Shown one piece after another: positions 3,800-38,100 of a stretch of DNA of 63,505 bases. Where the stretch lies: assembly GCA_021432655.1 (NCBI GenBank), contig MU271246.1, positions 62,001 to 125,505 of the forward strand, read 5' to 3'. The notes beneath the pieces were generated by a model that saw only the letters and a program-made list of their open reading frames with translations, was not told where the DNA came from and ran no database searches. How positions within the stretch are numbered: position 1 is the stretch's first letter; each line of letters begins with the position of its first letter. The stretch comes from Atractiella rhizophila. Its lineage: Eukaryota. Made by a program: the position numbers and the translations under genes.

Positions 3800-5329
3800 C
3801 TATTTAGCTCTAATATCGATAAGAAACCCATCTGATCCCGTCACCCTTACCAGAACCTTCCGTCGTTTACTTTGTTTGATCCAGTCGCTCAACAAAGCAA
3901 CATCTGGACTGCTCACCTCCCCCTCTTTGATGACATCCACTCTCAACAGACCGGAGCCGTCCAACATCTTCCTCCGATCCACTATCCGAAATCCAATGTC
4001 TAAAAGCTGTTGGGAGAGGTCGAAATGGTCGTGTCCGTGGAGATCACCGTGTGAACTAGAGTGATGGGACGTTACGGGCGGTTCGTCATGGAGGTCAGGC
4101 TCCGGGTGGCGAGAGTGAGCGGAAAGAGGGGAGGAGGCGTCAAGTAGCCTGAGGATGGATCGAGCGCCGGGTTTGATAGCTTGCCATATGATCATCATCG
4201 AAACTGCAAGGCCAGCGAGTGGTTCGGCAACAGGTACGCCAGCAGCAGCACATCCTAAACCCAAGGCGGCTACGGCTGATCCATTCATCCAAAGAACGCG
4301 TCAACAACCTGCTCAAGTTTCAGAGTGAGAGCCTTACCCGTCGTCCAAGAGTCCGAACGATGGTGTGTGGCTGTGGAATGGAGGAGTTCAGAGTTGTGTG
4401 AGATTGCGATGCGGTTTGTTGCTCTTGAGAGCCATTCCTTCGATAGGATCACGACGAGAGCTATTGAGAATGCGACTCCAGCTGCCTCCGGCGACATTGC
4501 GACATCTCCCGCCGCCCCCACCGCTTCAGAAGAGATGTGTAAGTGGCCTCCGTGCGCGTAAGCAGTGGGTAAGAAAGTGATAATCTTCTGTAAAGACTCC
4601 CATGCGAATCCGATTCCAGCTCTGACGATGATAGCCGAAACGATTAAACTAGCGAATGGATCCAACTTGTTTAATTCTCCTCTTCCGCTCCCAAAATACC
4701 GCTGTATGCCTAGACACCTAGCAAGGAATCCCGTTCGGTTCCTCTTCAACATGAGAGCTGTAAGGGCAATGGAGTCAGAAATCACGTCAGCAAGCGAATG
4801 CCACCCATCGGCTGCGAGCGCTGTGGAGTGGTACATAGAGGCAGCTGTGAACTTGACTCCTGCAAGGGCGATGTTGGAAAGGAATCCGACGAAAACGATG
4901 CGGATGTCTGGCTGAGAGAGAAGGGAGCGAAATGGCGCTTCTAGCAGGACGGACATCTTCTCTTCGTGCTCGTTGTGAGAGTGATCGTGCGAACCGTGCC
5001 ATCGTTTTTGTGAAACTAGAGAGAAAGGAGAGGAAGGAGGAGCCGGCAGAGCAGAGCGGGAAGGGAAGGGGGTGAGGCTATCCTGAAAGTTTGGGCTGTT
5101 CCGCATCATTTGTAAGCTACTGAGTTGACCACGACCACATCCGCTATCGGGAACTGCTTTAAAGTGGAAAGGAATAAAGAGAACAGACTCACTAGTACTT
5201 TTGCTGTAGCCTACTTGTTCCAATGTGAATGTGAGACGTTCGAAGTGCCGAGAGTGGTCGCGTTGGCAGTCCGCGGTACAACAACTGGAGCTGGATCTTT
5301 TTCCATGGTCCTGAGCAGCGGTGGAGCAT
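3800..5329 (-). CDS. Cation diffusion facilitator, mitochondrial MMT-like metal transporter
   Basis: Arg-rich presequence from ATG 5329, RWHGSHDHSH His-rich segment, ALAADGWHSLAD (TM2) and HHRSD (TM5) motifs. An intron at about 4276-4338 joins ORFs 4285-5223 and 3800-4288. Confidence 0.85.
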
Positions 5330-14987: not shown

Positions 14988-16483
14988 ATGTCGAAGAATT
15001 CCCTTAGACAATTAGGCAAAAATGGCCCCTTCAGTGTGCTCTCCTTCTTAGTCTTAATGAATGCTAGCAGCTTCGTTGATATCGGCTTGCGATGATCTAG
15101 TCCCAGCCCTTGGATACGGCGCTATGGGGCTCTCAGCTTTCTATCAAGGTTCCCTGTCAGACGAAGAGAGCAGGAGGCTCTTGAAAAAGGCATAGTGGAG
15201 CCTCTTACTTGTTGCGGCACCGAATTGATCGCCAATCCTGATAGGTTCTCGATTTGGGAATTCAACATGTTGACACAGCAGCTCTGTGCGTTTTCTCCAT
15301 ATAAAGTTCAACCCAGTGATAAAACCTGTTCAGGTATGGGAATGGAAAGAACGAGGTCTTAATTGGAAGCGTTTTGCAAGATCCAGAGTATAGGAAAAAG
15401 TGCTTTATCGCGACGAAGGTGCTTTCTCCTCGTGAATAAGCAGTTCAAGATCTCATGAAGAATTGCACAGTTTGGCTCGGTGTTTGATAAGGATGGGAAG
15501 CTCCATATTTCAGGCAAACCCGTAGTAGTTAGACAATCATGCGAAGCCTCTTTGGCAAGGCTACAAGTGGATACCATCGACTTATACTATCAATCGCGTG
15601 TAGGTCATCCCTCACATCCATCTACCGTCTCTCTGACATAAATTGGAGGTCGACCGTACTATCAACATCGAAGAAACATGGGCAGAACTCGCAAAACTAC
15701 AGAAGGAAGGAAAGATTAAGCATCTTGGAATATGCGAGGCGACACCCGAGGAGATCAGGAAGGCGCATTCCATCGCACCTATCCAAGTCTGCGAGATTGA
15801 ATTCTCGTTATGGACACCGGACATTAGGACAAACGGGATATTGGACACTTGTCGCGAGTTAGGCATTGCGATTGTCGCATACTCTCCACTAGGAAGAGGT
15901 ACGCATGACATCTCCTTTCTGTCGTTCATGGGAGATTGACGGTCAACAGGATTCCTCACTGGTGCATATAAGCCAGAGGATTTTGGGAAGGACGATATCA
16001 GGGCTGTCAGTCCTCGTTTCCGGAAAGAAGCGTTCGAAGAGGTATCTCATTTTCTTCCCCGTTTTGCATTGTGCTCAAACACTATCAAAGAATATGAAAC
16101 TGGTAGACGCTGTGCAGAAAGTGGCAGACAGGAAACTGTGCACNNNNNNNNNNNNNNNNNNNNNNNNNNNNNNNNNNNNNNNNNNNNNNNNNNNNNNNNN
16201 NNNNNNNNNNNNNNNNNNNNNNNNNNNNNNNNNNNNNNNNNNNNNNNNNNNNNNNNNNNNNNNNNNNNNNNNNNNNNNNNNNNNNNNNNNNNNNNNNNNN
16301 NNNNNNNNNNNNNNNNNNNNNNNNNNNNNNNNNNNNNNNNNNNNNNNNNNNNNNNNNNNNNNNNNNNNNNNNNNNNNNNNNNNCAAGGTGGTGGGAATGA
16401 GGTGTGTCCAGCTTTTGAACGCAGCAGAAAACTGATTTAAAAGGTATCCTGCGCCGTCTAATGCAATGGGAACGGCTTTTTGA
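14988..16483 (+). CDS. Aldo-keto reductase, copy 2 (close paralog of copy 1; spans an N gap)
   Basis: Same motifs and exon layout as 11888-13378 ([49 protein letters not shown]). Confidence 0.9.
16144..16383. other. Assembly gap (240 N)
   Basis: Run of N inside AKR copy 2. Its size is similar to the equivalent segment of copy 1. Confidence 0.99.
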
Positions 16484-21107: not shown

Positions 21108-21644
21108 GTTGACTATTTTTCGTTTTCGTTAAGCGAGGAAGTCGTGAAATTTGACGTGAATGAACTTTGCTGGTTCCTGGACGAAGGGAGGGACTCCCTT
21201 TTATATCGCAGATGAAAGACGTCAGCGGACAAGCGAAGAGGGATTAGAAAACTGGAAACTGGTGCCAGACGTGAAAAAGCGCAGGGTTTGACGCACCGTT
21301 GACGCCTCCAGATGCACTTGCAAACTGGATCCGTTTTATCGACTGCGTCATTCGTTCCCTCGCGTATTTTGCCGTGTTTTGAGGACTGCCATACGTAAGC
21401 TGTTCACTCGTGAAACTGGGATTGCTGATCCCGTCACCAAAGGTTGACCAAAGCGGGGCTACGTAAGATGATCTCGATCCGCAAGTAGCTCAGATTTCTC
21501 GCGTGCTCAATCGTAGTAATGAAAGTGACGTCACATAATGAGGGAGGAGTTCACGTGTCATTATCATTGTTGCCTTCCATAATATCGACAAAGCTTTGCA
21601 AGGAATCTCGTAATTCAGAACGATCCGAAACATACAATAAGTGT

Positions 21645-23203
21645 TCAGAGAGCCAAGGTATGCTCCACGAACTTGTTGTATCTCCCTCCCACCACACCTT
21701 GCACTGCGTCCCTGACTTCAGCTGCTTCTTCATCCGTCAACACCACATCCAGAGCCTTCAGATTTTCTCGCACTACATGCGGCCTAGACTATGGTATTCG
21801 CATACGCTAATCAACAATAAGGCTTGGAGGGACAAAGAGCACCTACGCTTCCAGGAATAGGCACGAATCCTTCCCATTGCTTCAATATCCAAGCGAGGCA
21901 GAGTTGGGGAGCGGTGACGCCTTTTCTTTCCGCTATGCTCAGGAATTTGTTGACGAGAGCTTGATTATGATCCCAATTATCGGGCTGAAATAATCATAAC
22001 ATGAGCCCACGTTGCAAGTCGAAATACAGAGGAAGGAGAAGCGGACTTGGAATCTGTCAAAAGTCCTCCGAAGGTCCTTTTCGTCCAGCTCGGTGGGTTG
22101 CTTCCATTGACCGCTTAATATTCCGCGGCCTGTAATACAGAATATGAGCAAACTCACTTCCATTATGGAGAGAACGGAGCTTACTGATAGGACTGTAAGC
22201 GATTATCGGGATTCCTAATTCCTTGCAAGCATCCAAGACTCCATTCTTCTCCACATCGAGAGAGAACGGGCTGTATTCCTCTTCGAGCTGCATACCAAAG
22301 CGGAAAAGACTCAGTATTGTTGTATCATGAACAAGTGTGGAAAAAAGCGCACAAGGGAGATAGGACAGATTGCGTGTGCCTTCCTGATTGTTTGGGCTGA
22401 GCATCTGTTCCCAGTCGTCGTCTGAGACTTTTCTTGAATGAGGGAAATAGAGGATCATACTCGGACATCCCCACGTAGTCAAACAGTCCTTCTTCAACCA
22501 ACGCTTTCAAATCCCTTGCGACTTGCTCGATGGGGACAGTAGCATCGACTAACAACCGCCATCGGTACCCAACTCTCTGTGGCTGTGTGGTGATTGAGCG
22601 AGATATACGTACCGCGAGCGGGTGAAAACATATCGAGCCTCTTCTTCCCACCCAAAAGCCTCGTGATGTTCTCCACGCTCGCTTTCAACCCTTCCTTCGA
22701 GCACGTAGGCTGGTACGTCTTCATGTCGAATGCACCCTTGACGCAGAGGAAACACTTGTCCGCATACTCGGGATGGACGCTGAAGAACCGATTGAGCAGC
22801 TTGATGTTCGCGTCAAAGTCGGAGGGAGGGCCGTAGAACTCGCCTGTCCAATTCATAGGTTAGTCGTGTCAGGTTATTTTGAGAGAGAGAGACGAACCCG
22901 CGTTCAGGTATGTCGACCCTCCGTCTATAGCGCTCTTGATTGCTTCTATAGCCTGGGATTCCGATACAGGATCAAGGTCGTTCTTTGCCGTCCTTTATTC
23001 ATCATTGTCAAACCTACGAAGAAAGGAGCAACGAAGAAACGCACAAGCTCAACAGGCCGTATCCTATTCTTCCTATCGTCGTGCTCTTGCTCAGACCTTT
23101 GATGGTGATATTTTGTCCAGTAAGCATATTGTTTTCTTCTGCTATAGTGCTCGATGATGAGACCTTGGAGGTGAGCGAGCTGCCTTTTATACATCTTCTT
23201 CAT
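21645..23203 (-). CDS. Aldo-keto reductase, pyridoxal reductase-like
   Basis: GEFYGPP, YADKCFLCVKG, LDMFSPAR, LVEEGLFDYVGMSE, EYSPFS, IAYSP and GRGILSG motifs. Confidence 0.9.
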
Positions 23204-23662
23204 AAAACGGCTATCCGAAGTCGGTTGCACTTTCTCTGCTACCGGATGTGTTCCATCAGATGGATTATGAAGCGGAACGGAGGGGAAGAGGAAAGACGTA
23301 CAACGTCACGTGATTTACGGTAAGAATACAGCTCAGGTCTCGCTGCAAAATTCAGAGGCGTGCTTCTGTCCAAAGATGGGCATATGGAAATGTGCGGTCA
23401 GTCTCCTGGAGACTGCATAAACAACAGGTCGAAATATCGGGAGGATTGGGTTTACACACTGACATGCCTGCCTCCCCTTAACCAATGCCAATCGTCGTGT
23501 TTCCTCCTCCAAATATTAACCATCTCTTCTTAAACAAGTCATCGGCCTTCTTCGTCAGGCCCGCCAACCCACGATCTGTTTGATATCTTGCCCAGATTCC
23601 CTCTAGAATCATGCTCTGATCAGTCTGGCCCATACACCAGAAAAATCATCCTTACGTTCAGC

Positions 23663-24081
23663 CTAATTTGATATCCTCTGCTCTATATGGTTATCGAAGG
23701 GGCTGCACAGAGTTTGTAATTGTCTGAAGCACTTTACTTTCCCGTTTTGATTTCCCACTTCAATATAGAGTGGTTTTGCCTCCTCGAACGCCTTCTTTGC
23801 ATCCTCATTCTGGCCACATTGAAAATTAATATCCCCTATTTCATAGATGCAGTCGACTTCATCCAGTCGATTCCCCACTGCAATAGAGTGCCTTTGCCTC
23901 CTCTAACGCTCTCAGTGCATCCTTGTTCCGGCCGCATTGAAAATGAACTTTCCCAATGCTGCGAACACAGAGGGCTTGATCCTGTTGAGATCCCACTTCC
24001 ATGTAGAGCACCTTTGCCTCTTCGAAAGCCTTCAGAGCATCCTCATTCCGCCCACATTGAAAATCAATATCCCCAATGCTG
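23663..24081 (-). pseudogene. 3' end of a TPR-repeat NLR gene (about three 40-aa repeats plus C-terminus), with a 2-nt frameshift
   Basis: SIGDIDFQCGRNEDALKAFEEAKVLYMEVG repeats, same type as in ORF 26876-29929. Spacing between units is 120 then 118 nt, with the frameshift at about 23883. Confidence 0.75.
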
Positions 24082-24106
24082 NNNNNNNNNNNNNNNNNNN
24101 NNNNNN
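24082..24106. other. Assembly gap (25 N)
   Basis: Exactly 25 N. Confidence 0.99.
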
Positions 24107-26550
24107 GTAAAAGCTACACCCGCCTTACTCCTACGAGACTTCCGAAAGCTTCTCCGTTTCCACGAGATGTACCTTCACCCTAGAGCTGTCCCAGTTCGAC
24201 TGACACAAACACCGTAACCCCTATAAGTAAAAGCTACACCCGCCTTACTCCTACGAGACTTCCGAAAGCTTCTCCGTTTCCACGAGATGTACCTTCACCC
24301 TATAGCTGTCCCAGTTCGGCTGACACAAGTGCCGTAACCCCTATAACTAAAAGCTATACCCGCCTTACTCCTACGAGACTTCCGAAAGCTTCTCCGTTTC
24401 CACGAGATGTACCTTCACCCTATAGCTGTCCCAGTTCGGCTGACACAAGTGCCGTAACCCCTATAACTAAAAGCTATACCCGCCTTACTCCTACGAGACT
24501 TCCGAAAGCTTCTCCGTTTCCACGAGATGTACCTTCACCCTATAGCTGTCCCAGTTCGGTAGACACAAGTGCCGTAACCCCTATAAGTAAAAGCTACACC
24601 CGCCTTACTCCTACGAGACTTCCGAAAGCTTCTCCGTTTCCACGAGAAGTACCTTCACCCTAGAGCTGTCCCAGTTCGGCTGACACAAGTGCCGTAACCC
24701 CTATAACTAAAAAGCTATACCCGCCTTACTCCTACGAGACTTCCGAAAGCTTCTCCGTTTCCACGAGATGTACCTTCACCCTATAGCTGTCCCAGTTCGG
24801 TAGACACAAGTGCCGTAACCCCTATAAGTAAAAGCTACACCCGCCTTACTCCTACGAGACTTCCGAAAGCTTCTCCGTTTCCACGAGAAGTACCTTCACC
24901 CTAGAGCTGTCCCAGTTCGGCTGACACAAGTGCCGTAACCCCTATAACTAAAAGCTATACCCGCCTTACTCCTACGAGACTTCCGAAAGCTTCTCCGTTT
25001 CCACGAGATGTACCTTCACCCTATAGCTGTCCCAGTTCGGTAGACACAAGTGCCGTAACCCCTATAAGTAAAAGCTACACCCGCCTTACTCCTACGAGAC
25101 TTCCGAAAGCTTCTCCGTTTCCACGAGAAGTACCTTCACCCTAGAGCTGCCCAGTTCGGCTGACACAAGCCTCGTAACCCCTATAACTAAAAGTTACACC
25201 CGCCTTACTCCTACGAGACTTCCGAAAGCTTCTCCGTTTCCACGAGAAGTACCTTCACCCTAGAGCTGTCCCAGTTCGGTTGACACAAGCGTCGTAACCC
25301 CTATAAGTAAAAGTTACACCCGCCTTACTCCTACGAGACTTCCGAAAGCTTCTCCGTTTCCACGAGATGTACCTTCACCCTAGAGCTGTCCCAGTTCGAC
25401 TGACACAAACCCGTAACCCCTATAAGTAAAAGTTACACCCGCCTTACTCCTACGAGACTTCCGAAAGCTTCTCCGTTTCCACGAGATGTACCTTCACCCT
25501 ATAGCTGTCCCAGTTCGGTGACACAAGTGCCGTAACCCCTATAAGTAAAAGCTACACCCGCCTTACTCCTACGAGACTTCCGAAAGCTTCTCCGTTTCCA
25601 CGAGAAGTACCTTCACCCTAGAGCTGTCCCAGTTCGGCTGACACAAGCCTCGTAACCCCTATAACTAAAAGTTACACCCGCCTTACTCCTACGAGACTTC
25701 CGAAAGCTTCTCCGTTTCCACGAGAAGTACCTTCACCCTAGAGCTGTCCCAGTTCGGTTGACACAAGCCTCGTAACCCCTATAACTAAAAGTTACACCCG
25801 CCTTACTCCTACGAGACTTCCGAAAGCTTCTCCGTTTCCACGAGATGTACCTTCACCCTAGAGCTGTCCCAGTTCGGGCTGACACAAGCCTCGTAACCCC
25901 TATAACTAAAAGTTACACCCGCCTTACTCCTACGAGACTTCCGAAAGCTTCTCCGTTTCCACGAGATGTACCTTCACCCTAGAGCTGTCCCAGTTCGACT
26001 GACACAACCCGTAACCCCTATAAGTAAAAGTTACACCCGCCTTACTCCTACGAGACTTCCGAAAAGCTTCTCCGTTTCCACGAGAAGTACCTTCACCCTA
26101 GAGCTGTCCCAGTTCGGCTGACACAAGTGCCGTAACCCTATAACTAAAAGCTACACCCCGCCTTACACCTACGAGACTTCCGAAAACTTCTCCGTTTCCA
26201 CGAGATGTACCTTCACCCTATAGCTGTCCCAGTTCGGTAGACACAAGTGTCGTAACCCTTCCAAGTAAAAGTTACACCGGCCTTGTTCCTACGTGACTTC
26301 CGAAAGCTTCTCCGTTTCCACGAGATGTACCTTCACCCTAGAGCTGTCCCAGTTCGATTGACACAAGCGTCGTAACCCCTATAAGTAAAAGCTACACCGG
26401 TCTTACTCCTACGTTTCTTCCGCAAGCTCCTCCGTTTTGGTGAGATATAACTTCACCCTTTAGTTTTGCCCTTTCATTTCACGAAGTCTGTTAATGTTTG
26501 AGACACGTCGGGGAAGCTATTGGTATATCTCGTCTCCTATAGTTTAATCC
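24107..26550. repeat. Tandem array of about 20 x 120-bp units; mirror image (reverse, uncomplemented) of the NLR TPR coding repeats
   Basis: The base-by-base complement read left to right translates as HFRCGRNEDALKAFEEAKVLYMEVGSRQGQADCVCGIGDI. Units start at about 24107, 24227, 24347 ... 26386. Confidence 0.95.
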
Positions 26551-27206
26551 GACTTGCATTCCTACTAAAAAGACCACATACCCGGTCTGACTAGTCTCGT
26601 ACTAAGATCTCCCTTAGACCCGTTCTATAGTTTGTCTAGTCGGTTGTACACCTGTCACTAAAATCATCTTGACAGTTGTTGTAACTTACACGTATTACCT
26701 CCTAAATACTTATGTCGATGGATGATGATAAGGAAGCGCTGACTTGACAAGGTATGGTACCCGGTGTCTCGACCCTGATCCTACCCTCCTCTAAGTCGAA
26801 GCTACGCTGATAGTTTGACAACTGTCGCACGATGCACGACTTTCTACGCTTGAGCGAACAAACTACACTTGGGACCTAGTAGACGGAAGGAGAACAATCT
26901 TCCTTAGTGTCCTCCCCCTCAACGCTGTTTTCATCCTTAACCCCACCACGGAGAGACAGGTCAGGGCGGAAGAAAGTACGACTCTCAAGACGAACGGTCG
27001 AACTGATGATGATAAGGAAGCACTGCCTTGACAAGGTAGTCAGTTTAAACCGACCCCTTGTCTCAATCCCAGTCCCGGTCCCACTCAGGGCAGTCGGATC
27101 AACTCCGAGACCGACTGTCTTGATTGGACTGCCCTGCCTTGCGTGGTAACTCAGGACAGTCGAGTCTGAGTTGCCGGTTTTACCAAGCGTTCCGGCCCTA
27201 CTCGGG

Positions 27207-29929
27207 CGAAAATCAATATCCCCAATGCTGCGAACACAGTTGGCTTGACCCTGTCGATCTCCCACTTCCATGTAGAGCACCTTTGCATCTTCAAACGCCT
27301 TCACAGCATCCTCGTTCTTGCCATGGTCGTAAAAACAATTGCCGAGGGACTCTGTCAGTGAACGTCTTAGTCTTAACCATTCAGACTCTCTGCAACCTGG
27401 ATACAGGGGCATTCCCAACCCTGTGTTCACGGCATGTGTCGCCTGTTGTAACAGCGAAGTTGAGAGCCGATGTTTCATGCGTACAAACTCTGATGTGTTC
27501 TCCAAATGCCACAGCATGGGTAAAGGGTTTGACAGGCATAATAAGCTCCTTAGCAAGACATGTTCAAGGTTTGGGTATTGTTCACGGAATTGAAACAGTG
27601 CGTGTTGATCCTGGTGGATCTCGAACTGTTCAATATTTGACTCGGCTTTCTGCATGAGATGGTTTCCAAGAGGTAGGAGCGACCAAGCCACGGGCATCGA
27701 AAACGGTAATTTGGAGCCGGCGACAAGTTCGTTGAGGTATTCACGAATAGGAGCAAGCATACGGAGAGTACCTTTGATGTTATCGGCAAGTCCAATCTTT
27801 AAAATCACAGCAATGACTTTGAAGATATCCTGAGATTCATAAGACCTGGAAATGAGTGCTGACAGGTCATGGTGGGCTAGACCGTCTGGCACCCAAGACA
27901 GTAGTGCGAGTGCAAAGACAGCACGCTCCCCCTGCTTCTTGAGAGCGGGAGAATGGAGGGAGAACGATAGAGATGTTTTGAGCGTGATGGTATCTTCACT
28001 GTCTTCGTTCCAGAAAACAAGTGTCTTTTTCTCCTTCCACTCCTCTACCAATTCTTCGAGTGTCATAGTTGAATCCTCCTGCGCACGGAGAGCGAACAGC
28101 TTGATGGATAGAGCGTGGAAGTCTAGCTGGTCAACTAGCTGTTGGACCACCAGTAGCGAGGACTCCTCGTTGCTTCCATATGACTCCTCGAAGAGTGCGA
28201 GCACGCCGTCTTTCGGCAGACCGCCAACTGAGATCTTGATGAACTTCACAGGCTCTTTCCCTTTCACGCCCAACGCTTCCACTTTATCCCCACGGTGGAC
28301 CACGACGAGCACCGACCCAACTGAGTTGTTCGAGAGGAGTGTTCGGAAGAAGTGTTGTTTTTTGTTTTCGTCGGCACGCATGGGAGTCTCAAAGTTATCC
28401 AAAACGAGAAGGCATTTTCGACTTCTAAAGTAATCTGCCACGACCTCTAACGATGTTTTGTCAGACTTAGTCAGTGTGAAGATGTCGTTGCAGATGTGGT
28501 CAGAAAGCCTGGCGAAGGTGTCAAAATTGTCGCAGCGAACCCAGAAGCGGAGATCTTCTCCAATGCCCTGTGTCAGATCTGTGAATGACTGCCTGATCTC
28601 TTCGCAGTGCACCGCGTCGAGTGCAACGGTGGATTTTCCGTTTCCAGCTCCACCCACAATCGCAACGTGGCGTCCTTCAAGTATAGCTTTTCTGGCGCGT
28701 TGGATCTCATCTGTGCGGCCAAAGCAAGAGCCTGGAGGCGGTAAAGGTAACCGCCGACGAACTGCAATCCGTTCACTGCACACTACAAGGACGTCAGTGT
28801 GGTATTTACACGAGAGGTAAGAGAACATACCCTGCACGAGACATTGAGCAGCATCACGCGCTTCGTGACCCATTACTTGCATATAGGCTTTTGTCCGACC
28901 CACGACGTCCTTTGTTCGCTCCCACTCCTCCCACTTGATGCCTCCCATCGTGTGGACTGAAAAGCGGTGATAGCGATGGCCCAGGCCGCGATCCTGCATC
29001 TTCATCTTCAACTGATCTGCTACCTGGGAACAATCTTCGACGATTGCCTTCACAGCGAGTTCAATCTCGCATTGGGTCGGACCCCAATTAACAGCCGGAG
29101 CGATCCCAGACCCCAGAGAGACAAGACAGGCGACTTCGCTTCCTTGTCCCCATATGTGCTTAGCCTCGTCAATCGCTATTGCCGCTGGGTTATTGTTCCC
29201 GATGGTGACATATTCCGTATTGTCGATGACGATAGGAGGAAGGAAGGGACGGGGAGAGGAAGTCGCTCTTGCTGCTTCCAACACCGTACATCGTGCAGCA
29301 GCATTTGGCGCATCGTACGTGCGCAATTTTGTTGAAACAACTGCGTTTGATTCGTACGTTGACACAACAAAAGTTCTACATCTATCCCCAATTGCCACAT
29401 CCTTCATAGGAAGTCGAGAGGACGAGATAGACAGTGGAGCGTGTCGAGTAATGATCTCCTGGAGGACGGCTTCGAGCGTCTTTGCGGAGCATGCATAGTC
29501 TTCATTCGAAAGTGGAGCTCCCCCGGAAAAGACGTCCTGCACGATCTCTTCGTACGCGCTGATGGATTGTCGAACGGTCATTCCCAACCTTCCGAGCATG
29601 AGGGCGATCCACCCTCCCGTGGAAGTGCCACAGATGAGATCGAAAACGTCGCACGGCCGGACTTCTTCTCCTTCGTGGACTTTGAGGAGGTTGCCAACCT
29701 CGAGCATGACGACTTCGAGCATGTAAAGCGTGGAGAAGGTACAGACGCCGCCGTTGTCGATAGCGAGGATTCGGAGTCCTTGTTCGTTCGTCTTCTTGAC
29801 ATTGTCAGGGACTTTGAAAATCTTGATGGTTTGAACTTGGGATCGGCTGGAGGACGAGAAAGGTGTGGGTAACAGATCTGGAGGCAACAGGAGATGCGGT
29901 ACGCGATAGGAAGCGAAATTGTGAGCCAA
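27207..29929 (-). CDS. NLR-like protein: patatin-like phospholipase domain, STAND (NB-ARC-like) NTPase and TPR repeats. True start probably upstream (about 30143); the TPR array continues in the mirrored segment
   Basis: LRILAIDNGGV, FDLICGTSTGG (patatin), GGAGNGKST Walker A, LLVLDNFE Walker B, first TPR GKNEDAVKAFEDAKVLYMEVGDRQGQANCVRSIGDI. Same architecture as Neurospora PLP-1. Confidence 0.9.
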
Positions 29930-31016
29930 AAATTGTCGGGTTGGTGCTCAGGAAACGGATAGGTTGAGAGTACAGCTGCAATACTGAAAGATTTTGTACT
30001 CCGATCCCTTCATTAGGACGAGGAACTTCTCGCGGATCGGCGCTGAATGCGTGGTCGTCGTCAGACAAATTCCCAGGGTCTTCATGGTTGCTGGGATTTG
30101 TTGAAGAAGGCTTAGGCGTCTTTCCGAAGGCTGAGGCGTCCATCGCTTAGAGCACGAGATGAAAACGATGACGATTGACCCAGAACTCCTTGTTGAACGT
30201 GAGACGAAACTGAGAGAATGCGTGTCAGATCTGGACGAGAGCTACCAGGAGGGAGGGTGGTCAAAGAATACTTGAACTGGCTGTGAAGAAGAGGAAGAAG
30301 AAACAAGGAATACGGAATACAGTACCGCTGCGTTCCGATCCAATGATACGTACGTACGAATGCATGAAAGAAAATCCAGATGAATGTGACGATGTGAGGA
30401 TAAGAAGGGAGGGAAGCTTAGCGCAACTTAATCAATTTGTCAACTCGCAAGACGGAGGAATGAATGCTAGGAAAAAGAAGGATGAACCATCCAGCACTGA
30501 AGATCTCTTGTCTAACGGATCGGAAAACGGTCCTAAGAAGAAGTGGCGTTGTGGCTAAGGTGAAGTTATGCTTCCGCTTGAGCCAATGGAGATATGGAGT
30601 ATGAAGGCTGCACAATATCGAATTGACGAGGGAGAACATAAAATTCATCCCCCCAACTCCAACTCATCCCTCATCTCGGTGTCGACATGCCAGGGTCGAT
30701 AAATTTAAGACTCACGGGACTCCTGAGACTCTTTCTCCGATCGTTCAGAAACGCTTGACACTCAGCAAACAAACTCGAGAACAGTCCGATATCGTGCTGT
30801 CTTTGACACTCAGCGGAAGATGCAGTGAGTGTTCGCCGATGGAAGCTCAATAAAGTTCACTGACTCTACCGCACATCCCGTCCAAGATGTGCTTATTCCC
30901 TCCGATTTCTTTCGTCTCTTCGGAGAATACCCTCAAATAAATTCTTAACAAAGAAAAGGTGCTGACGGAAGGCACAGTTCGACGCTGGGCCTGTCTGGGC
31001 TACTTCCGAGTTTGCC

Positions 31017-35195: not shown

Positions 35196-38100
35196 ATGGT
35201 GAGCGGGCAGAGCATGGCACTGATTGTTCCCAGCTCCGTCGGAACGGTTACTTCTATTTTCGACTGCCACGCCGACTCAGGCCCAGACTCACCAGCATCA
35301 GCATCAGCATCAGCATCAGCACCAGGGTCACCACCAGCGACAGTGACAGTGCGAGCGAGCAGCAGCATGCCTCCCTCGCCGTCGACGAAGAAGCCGCCCC
35401 TGCGCCGGCTGTCCATTCCGCTCCAGGCCACCTCCTCCGCCGCCATCGCGCTGGGCACCGACGACGACGTCCCCCTCAGCGCGGGGGCGGGGGCGAGAGG
35501 CGGAGAGAGCGGAGAGACGACCCCCGTGGGCAGGAGGAGGAAGAAGATGCCGTTCGAGGCGGGTGCTGCGAGTGGTAACGTTGGTTCTGCGGCGAGTGGA
35601 CAGGCGAATGGGAGTGGGAATGCGAATGGGGTTTATGGCAGTGGTTATGCGGGGAGTTATCTCCCGCCGTCTACGTCTGCCCAGCAGATAAGCAAGTTGG
35701 GTTGGGTCAATGGCTCTTCCACATCCACATCTACAACATCGTCGTCGGTACGCATTTTTCTTTTCCCATTGCATTGCATAACTCTGGGTGGACGACGATA
35801 AAGCGACTATCCGAACCATCCCTCGCCCCCTCTTCCTCTTCCCGCACCTCCACCGACATCAGAGAAGAATCCTGGTTCCCGTCCCCTCTCCACTCTCCTC
35901 CCTCGCACTCGCACTCCCAAAACTCCTCCTACTTCCACACCCCGCGGCATTCCAACACCCTCTCAGCGACCGATCCGCACTCTCCTTCTCCTCTGCACCT
36001 CCCGCTCACCCCGCCAGCCGATGTGAGGAGCTTCAAGATGAATGTGCCGAGGGAAGAGGGGTGGGGATCGTATCTCAGACGAGGGGTGAAGAGGTTGCGG
36101 TTGGCCGCAGCTTCTTCACTAGGAGGTGGTGGAGGAGGAGGAGGGCCAGGAGAAAGGGTCTTACACCGCGGTGGTGGTGGCGGCGGCGGCGGAGCTGGCG
36201 GAGGGGGTATTGGAAAAGGAAAAGGGAGGTTGATGCTCATGGGCCGAATACAGCTCTGCACCCTCCTCTTCGTCTTCATCACCCTGTTCTACCTCTTCCG
36301 TTCCCCTTCCTCCCCTTCGCCTTCTCTCCCAGACCTGCCTCAAACTATAGCACCCATCCTCGTCCCTCCCCCTCGGACACCCCGTCGAAATTCTCCGCCA
36401 CCGAGGTCGATCACCTCTCCTTCTCTCGAATCGACGAATAGAGGATTGAATTACACCACCCTCACCAGTTCCCCATCTTACTTTTCCCTCCCCATGGACC
36501 AAATAAACCTCGGAGTCCTCATCTCCTCTCCCCTCTCCACCTCCTCCCAAACATCCATCCTAGTCTCCAAACTCCGAAAACAGTCTCTCCTCCCAAAACG
36601 GGTCCTCGTAGTCTGCAGGGACGGAGAGGGAGAAGACGTAGCTCTGGCGTTAGAGAACGAGCCCGGGTCCGGATCAGGAGCGGGAGAAGAAGAGGGCGAA
36701 GAAATGGAGCTGCAGGTCGCCACCTTCGGGGACGAGATCGACTCCCGAAACGAAGCCCTCGTCCGCGCCGGCGTGCGCTACCTCGGCGGAACGAACGTGC
36801 TCCTCATCCTGGGCGGCGGGGACGTCCTGCCCGACGGGAACGGGTGGTTGGAGCACTTTGTGAGGTCGTTGAACGTCCCCCAGTTGGGCGGGAGGTGGAT
36901 CGGCAGTACCGGATGGGATCGGGAGGGCGCGTGTTGGGATGATCCGAGGAGTGTGGGCGCGAAGGAGGTCGTTGTCCCCAGGGGCCCGTTTGTGGTCCTT
37001 ACGGAGTGGATTCAGCATTTGGCGCCGTTTAAGTATCCGGTGCAGTTGAGGACGTCCTTGATTCCGGGCAGAGAGGAACATGTGGGCGAGTTCCTCGCGT
37101 TGGCGTTGAGGAGGTATGTAGGCGTTGAAGGCGCGGCGGTGCCTTTGGCGGAGAGGGAAGGGGTGGATGAAGAGTATGATGCCGAAGAGGAGGAAGGGGA
37201 GAAATGTGAAGGAGAAAGGAAACCGATCGTCTTGAGGGAGTTGGTGAGAGCAGGTGTGGGCAGGGAAGAATCGAAGAGGGAAGGAAGGAGGGGAAGCGTC
37301 GTCTTCTTCGCTTCTGATGATGACGAGGGCAGGACTTGGGAACCGATCGCGTGCCAGTTTAGGAAGAGGGGTCACGAAGTCTTGCTCTTCCTCGCGTCCT
37401 CAGAAGAATTAGAGGACGCTTCATCCCTCCACGGCGCCGGGACATCCACCTACGATTCCACCCACCTCTGCGCGCTCGACGTCAGACTCCTCTCTTCCCC
37501 CGTCCTCGAGACGCTAACGACGATCGGAGGGACGGATGTCGCCTTCTATCTCTTGGGCAGCGACCACGAACAGAGGTGGGAACGCGCGTTGAGGGCTTGG
37601 GGCGGTTGGTTTGGAGAGAAGGCGAGGAGGTGGGGGAGCGGGGCTGGTGGTGGTGGAGAGGGTAGGACGACTGTCATCGCTTTGGGGAAGGAGGAGGCTG
37701 GCGGGGCGGAGTGGATTGGAAGTTTGCCTTTGGAGGGAGTCTTAGGTCCGTTCCCAACATTCGATGTTTGGAGAAAAGATGCTGATATGTTGATGTTGTG
37801 TGAACAGAGTGGCATACCCCGCAAATCGACCTCGCCGTCATCACTGATAACCGTCCTTCCTCCCTTACCCGTCTTCTGAGGGCATTGCAGACGTCGTATT
37901 ACCTTGGCGACCAGGTTTCGTTAACCATCAACCTCGAACAGACGGCGGATCGAGTGACGCAGGACCTCGTACATGGACTCGATTGGCCGCATGGAAAAGT
38001 CACCGTCCGTCATCGAATCGTGAAGGCAGGTCTGATGCCAGCCATCGTGGAGTCTTGGTACCCTTCTTCGAATCATTCGTACGGCATAATCCTCGAAGAC

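Follow-up and report, generated by a model that had tools for sequence, protein, structure and literature searches.

The question raised by this locus is whether the 3.1 kb between positions 24107 and 27206 belongs to the DNA of Atractiella rhizophila in the form in which it was deposited, or whether the order of its bases is a fault of the record. The window, which means here the whole stretch of DNA that was analysed, is 63,505 nucleotides long, and all positions are given within it. A sequence-only reading of the window had proposed that the segment is a mirror image, reversed and not complemented, which hides the TPR array of a neighbouring NLR gene.

Extent and Boundaries of the Mirrored Block

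The whole of 24107–27206 is written in reversed order without being complemented, and it begins directly after a run of 25 N, which is one of two N-runs in the window (the other consists of 240 N at 16144–16383). As shown in Table 1, a part of the block has a counterpart in normal orientation on the left contig. The mirror pair formed by 26393–26639 and 23573–23819 agrees at 247 of 247 bases with 0 indels, and the coordinates of paired bases sum to 50212. The identity has a sharp end at 23572/23573, and past 23819 it is only partial. Over 511 nt, the left-contig stretch agrees with the collinear mirrored units at 91.6%, and it follows by arithmetic that, outside the identical 247 nt, the distal units of the left contig are about 84% identical to the collinear units of the block.

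Table 1. Features at the reversed block and in the adjoining NLR gene (positions within the window).
Positions	Strand	Feature	Evidence
23573–23819	−	Copy of the NLR 3′ end in normal orientation, with the last TPR unit, stop TAG (23663–23665), about 90 nt of 3′ flank	247/247 mirror identity, translation
23820–24081	−	Two more TPR units, in normal orientation, with which the left contig ends	Pfam matches on 23862–24080: TPR_12, 31.0 bits (cut-off 30.1); TPR_2, 30.2 bits (cut-off 27)
24082–24106	.	25-N assembly gap	
24107–26459	.	Reversed, uncomplemented TPR array: 19 full 120-nt units and part-units; coding sense obtained from the complement, read left to right	TRF, translations, indels, tblastn
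26393–26639	.	Reversed, uncomplemented copy of 23573–23819: terminal unit, stop (deposited as ATC at 26547–26549, complement TAG), 3′ flank	
26640–27206	.	Reversed, uncomplemented 567 nt, downstream of the gene once corrected	Orientation log-odds, local alignment
27207–27343	−	Normally oriented TPR unit, the first clear one in the NLR	Contig fit from 27207/27208
27209–29929	−	Open frame of the correctly written part of the NLR, 907 codons	
28184–28672	−	P-loop NOD, NACHT-like; Walker A GGAGNGKST, Walker B LLVLD	Pfam NACHT and nSTAND1 (both just below cut-off)
29171–29764	−	Patatin-like phospholipase domain, N-terminal effector; GTSTG present	Pfam PF01734

As a control for chance, the whole 63.5-kb window was reversed without complementing and compared with the window itself on both strands using BLAST at E ≤ 1e-5. 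All 82 HSPs obtained (82/82) were confined to 23573–24081, 24107–26639 and 27207–27339, and at this threshold no HSPs were found in the remainder of the 63.5 kb. At the right boundary, normal orientation holds from 27207 on, where the k-mer orientation score is positive and from where, or from 27208, public contigs fit; both results are described below. The indel-free mirror pair, the adjacent 25-N gap and the return to normal orientation at about 27207 had each been claimed in the sequence-only reading, and they are borne out by the identity of 247/247 at a constant coordinate sum, by the N-run itself and by the contig fit together with the change in sign of the k-mer score.

Coding Content as Deposited and after Reversal

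According to TRF, the array at 24107–26459 has a period of 120, 19.6 copies and 93% matches. As deposited, it contains between 25 and 47 stops in each of its six frames. The longest open stretch in the deposited orientation is 159 aa (24184–24660, plus strand), and a Pfam scan of this frame, which was the sole stop-free frame scanned, gave nothing above threshold, the best match reaching 18.3 bits where the cut-off is 27.

When the complement of the array is read from left to right, 40-aa TPR units appear in seven open stretches of 58–207 aa. Along the complement of the block, 19 full 40-aa units lead to a divergent last unit and then to the stop codon listed in Table 1. The frame of this reading is interrupted by nine indel events (10 columns) in 2278 nt, which occur in 7 of the 19 units, and five of the nine events lie in runs of at least three identical bases.

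The two proteins P0007 and P0010, which are natural proteins with the source name Atractiella rhizophila and paralogues of the neighbouring gene, were compared with the block using tblastn. Against the deposited block, only 4 HSPs with a best E of 0.25 were obtained, whereas against the reversed block there were 82 HSPs on the minus strand with a best E of 2e-51 (179 bits), the alignments joining the reversed array to the TPR regions in both proteins. These results agree with the earlier statements that the array encodes nothing on either strand, that its complement read left to right gives 40-aa TPR units, and that single-base indels are scattered through it. The mirror claim had been staked on the alignment of the reversed segment to the TPR repeats, and the segment does align. 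The further claim of a real but hidden sensor array of about 20 repeats also holds, as reversal restores both the homology to the paralogues and the phase of the repeats across 27207.

Orientation Estimated from Base Composition

The orientation was scored from 6-mer counts taken from the rest of the window, using the log-odds of each word versus its own reversal. Across the array the score ranged from −25 to −47, while 230 control windows of 500 nt gave a mean of +15.8 with a standard deviation of 7.4 and a minimum of −4.5. Slightly negative values were found in three of the 230 controls (at 5001, 32751 and 50751), none of which neighbours another.

The tail of the block, 26640–27206, is without a mirror partner, yet it is counted as reversed because of its orientation log-odds of −12.2. 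Among 300 controls of the same length, with a mean of 15.8, a standard deviation of 6.9 and a minimum of 0.4, none (0/300) was as low. Using the same k-mer score, no further reversed blocks were found in the 63.5-kb window, and the orientation is normal on both sides of the 240-N gap (21.8 and 16.1).

The Junction at 27207 and the Public Contigs

Once reversed, the block ends in ...CCGCCCACAT+CGAAAATG, and the sequence from 27207 starts with CGAAAATC, which gives a 7-base overlap and keeps the 120-nt phase; the seven bases at 27207–27213 thus repeat the end of the reversed block. Complementing the block in place was also considered and was rejected, as it would leave both ends of the block without continuity.

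Contigs of three public runs (X1, X2 and X3) were placed on 26460–29459, and the evidence described here is drawn from 18 of 79 loose ends and 24 of 638 contig pieces. The three sets consist of assembled contigs, not of raw reads, and they may be the source of the window itself. Among these matches, the contigs fit exactly from 27207/27208. In X2, at least four contigs extend leftwards past 27207 with the loose end AGCATCCTCATTCCGCCCACAT, which matches base for base the 22 nt ahead of the overlap in the reversed block. At least one contig each in X1 and X2 has the variant ...CCCACATT before 27208, the form also seen where the left contig ends. In X1, at least one contig returns from 27317 to 27207 with nine letters between, which corresponds to a forward 120-nt tandem.

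The gene family is multi-copy, with summed contig depths that run into thousands and with numerous variant letters, so that paralogues are a possible source of the loose ends at 27207. The depth of X1–X3 is 0 in all seven bins of 26460–27159 and cover begins with the bin 27160–27259; the uncovered part proves nothing.

Repeats of the CCCTAA telomere type are joined to contigs of the patatin and NOD region. They were seen in X1 as loose ends before 28962 and 29164, and in X3 as an insertion behind 28258. Because contigs run into these repeats, paralogues of the NLR seem to lie at chromosome ends or at healed breaks.

The Hidden NLR Gene and Its Repeats

When the block is reversed in place, the layout on the minus strand, from high to low positions, is a patatin domain, a NOD, about 21 TPR units of 40 aa and a stop; the stop is followed by 567 nt of downstream sequence, the gap, and, on the left contig, a second and truncated copy of the 3′ end. 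The gene hidden in this way belongs to a known kind, being an ordinary fungal NLR of the patatin / P-loop NOD / TPR type. The patatin domain was identified by PF01734 with an E-value of 4.6e-11 (43.7 bits, cut-off 27.7). The NOD scores just below the cut-offs of two families, with 26.6 bits against 26.7 for NACHT and 26.5 bits against 27.1 for nSTAND1.

At the 5′ end of the gene, 29765–29947 on the minus strand lacks an in-frame ATG ahead of the patatin domain, and it is only within the domain that the first Met occurs. In the protein P0010, the corresponding LRIL..NGG motif is preceded by about 15 residues. The NLR may take its start codon from an upstream exon, or the copy in the window may be a truncated one.

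The 19 units of 40 aa have a mean pairwise identity of 0.89 and a minimum of 0.75. The variation among them is found at eight positions, 12, 17, 23, 26, 27, 32, 34 and 35, numbered in the unit register of this analysis. Codon differences from the unit consensus comprise 69 nonsynonymous and 9 synonymous changes, a ratio which, coming from one sequence, is no more than suggestive of positive selection. The units at 24494, 24735 and 24975 are identical in nucleotides, as are those at 24254 and 24374, which gives a super-period of 240 nt over 24254–25094. This super-period may represent a recent true duplication or a collapse of the consensus.

On the left contig, the TPR copy has a frame shift between its second-last and its last unit, within 23820–23902, and this partial copy may be a pseudogene fragment or may contain an assembly error.

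In a protein search, 274 of 8000 scored candidates reached E ≤ 0.001. The nearest matches are ten proteins with the source name Atractiella rhizophila, at 38–72% identity, none of them identical, and the farther matches are ascomycete patatin-NOD-TPR proteins at 25–35% identity, which mostly carry NB-ARC. Most of these nearest paralogues, namely P0002–P0006 and P0008–P0010, are annotated with lengths of only 511–731 aa; in seven of these eight the patatin domain alone was detected using Pfam, and two are marked as partial. Truncation may run through the whole family in that annotation, and a gap or reversal fault like the present one is a possible cause.

Elsewhere in the window, two long open frames on the plus strand, 35579–37876 (766 codons) and 1238–2911 (558 codons), are without a Pfam family at E ≤ 0.001. 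No SNARE gene was found among the 21 window ORFs scanned.

Origin of the Reversal

The preferred reading, to which we assign a probability of about 95%, is that 24107–27206 was written reversed without complementing by an assembly or gap-extension program, which makes the reversal a fault of the record and not a matter of biology. In equivalent wording, the program complemented the block without reversing it. The block is bounded by assembly features, namely the 25-N run at one end and, once it is reversed, the 7-base overlap with 27207 at the other. Because the block adjoins the N-run, overlaps the right-hand contig by seven bases and contains indels of the homopolymer type, it would be a consensus extension. 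More precisely, it would be a leftward extension of the right-hand contig (27207 on) into the scaffold gap. Such an extension would have been built reading outwards from the right-hand contig and, on pasting, would have been complemented but not reversed, the 25 N being left as a placeholder. A polished consensus fits better than a raw long read, since indels occur in the array but the 247-nt stretch is free of errors. The sequence-only reading had called the segment a long-read gap-extension artefact. Its artefact part stands on the homology, the repeat phase and the contigs; for the part on long-read gap extension, we infer such an origin only from its fit to the 25 N, the overlap and the nine indels.

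A fault that arose after deposition, in later handling of the record rather than in the assembler, would leave the same kind of error outside biology, and it is quite unlikely. No direct point in its favour was found, and the exact start of the block at the N-run together with the 7-base overlap is the signature of an assembly extension. It is extremely unlikely that the block is a biological inversion (a reverse complement) or a degenerate non-coding satellite whose mirror reading is a coincidence. No support for this was found: the six deposited frames, the reverse complement included, contain 25–47 stops and give only chance matches in tblastn, whereas plain reversal gives the identity of 247/247 and an E of 2e-51. 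An ordinary inversion is ruled out by the stops in all six frames, the contrast between the tblastn results and the mirror identity taken together.

A mirror copy that is physically present in the DNA of the organism, as a reversed array of NLR repeats with the same polarity, draws what room it has from the fact that the evidence at 27207 comes from contigs and not from raw reads. If it were true, a copying process unknown to biology would be needed; to our knowledge, templated polymerases cannot make a reversed copy of the same polarity, and no templated process that yields a reversed, uncomplemented copy is known. Moreover, the block adjoins the N-run, the contigs carry the repeats in forward orientation leftwards of 27207, and the block encodes nothing as deposited, whereas its reversal gives a selected-looking array (69 nonsynonymous against 9 synonymous changes). 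Such a copy is vanishingly improbable. The earlier reading had likewise judged it very unlikely.

Layout of the Locus and Consequences for the Record

The tail 26640–27206 was compared by local alignment with the left flank, 21500–23572, in four orientations, and no match was found, the scores being 14–18 against a mean of 14.9 and a maximum of 18 in 20 shuffles. Against the rest of the window, the scores in four orientations were 20–22, equal to those of shuffles. The block thus holds its own copy of the last unit of the gene, the stop codon and the 3′ flank, plus 567 unmatched nt. The picture of a missing array between two flanks fails because these 567 nt are unmatched and the distal units on the left are only about 84% alike. 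There may be two tandem patatin-NLR paralogues with identical 3′ ends, the body of the second gene lying in the gap. As an alternative layout, the extension may have been built from reads of a paralogue or of another haplotype.

Since a reversed, uncomplemented block escapes every homology search and gene caller, the sensor half of the NLR, about 800 codons, is invisible in the record, and NLR repertoires counted from this assembly will come out both too small and too short. A systematic reversal bug in the assembly pipeline that preferentially hides repeat-rich genes, such as NLR sensor arrays, by gaps, together with two tandem paralogues, is more likely than a mirror copy in vivo; if the fault is systematic, a simple scan of the blocks flanking gaps could mend it. 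The quality of the data is somewhat more affected than biology, for which little is at stake, as the locus adds one more highly conserved repeat array to the patatin-NOD-TPR NLRs, and genes of this kind have been described since 2014.

Comparison with Known Systems

Long-read gap fillers of the PBJelly type extend flanks into an unclosed gap and leave a minimal N-run. The present block resembles their products in its 25-N residual gap, its one-sided flank extension and its consensus-type indels. In the summarizeAssembly utility of PBJelly, the default minimum gap is 25, as stated in the accessible part of the source (PMC6240028). In the literature searched, no published account was found of a gap filler or an assembly that writes reversed, uncomplemented blocks. 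The same string operation is used on purpose in repeat annotation, where, in the portions of the texts at hand, Dfam (PMC3531169) and the Recursive Repeat Extender preprint (10.64898/2026.04.14.718546) employ reversed, uncomplemented decoys as a null. The operation is identical to the one found here and is chosen there because its product is without biological signal. According to the same portions, the decoys are deliberate and are kept out of the record, whereas the present block is accidental and lies inside a genome sequence beside a gap.

The gene restored by the reversal can be compared with two kinds of fungal NLR. PLP-1 of Neurospora crassa reportedly has a central NOD and a C-terminal TPR sensor. 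By analogy with PLP-1, ligand binding would fall to the TPR array of the hidden gene and oligomerisation to the NOD, and the patatin domain would bring about cell death. In the part of the source that could be consulted, PLP-1 is described as a patatin-like phospholipase NLR sensing SEC-9, and, likened by this description, the two share an N-terminal patatin-like phospholipase effector (PMC10197012). The ascomycete patatin NLRs obtained in the protein search mostly have an NB-ARC, whereas the NOD in the window scores as NACHT- or nSTAND1-like just below the cut-offs, and the nearest named relatives of the gene are basidiomycete paralogues.

The repeats themselves show the pattern known from the highly internally conserved (HIC) repeats of fungal NLRs, for which the available text of Dyrka et al. 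(2014, PMC4986451) gives an identity of more than 85% across at least 100 aa and places the hypervariable positions on the concave TPR face. HIC TPR arrays named in that text are those of Podospora Pa_2_10340 and of a Penicillium chrysogenum protein with 21 TPR motifs (PMC4986451). As judged from its translation, the 19-unit array falls within this range of identity, its mean of 0.89 lying above 85%. As far as this source describes them, HIC arrays agree with the hidden one in their near-identical units, in their few variable positions and in the presence of about 20 units C-terminal to the NOD, but their units are mostly of 42 aa, with a minority of 34 aa, compared with 40 aa here, and the N-terminal domain differs in that here it is a patatin (PMC4986451).
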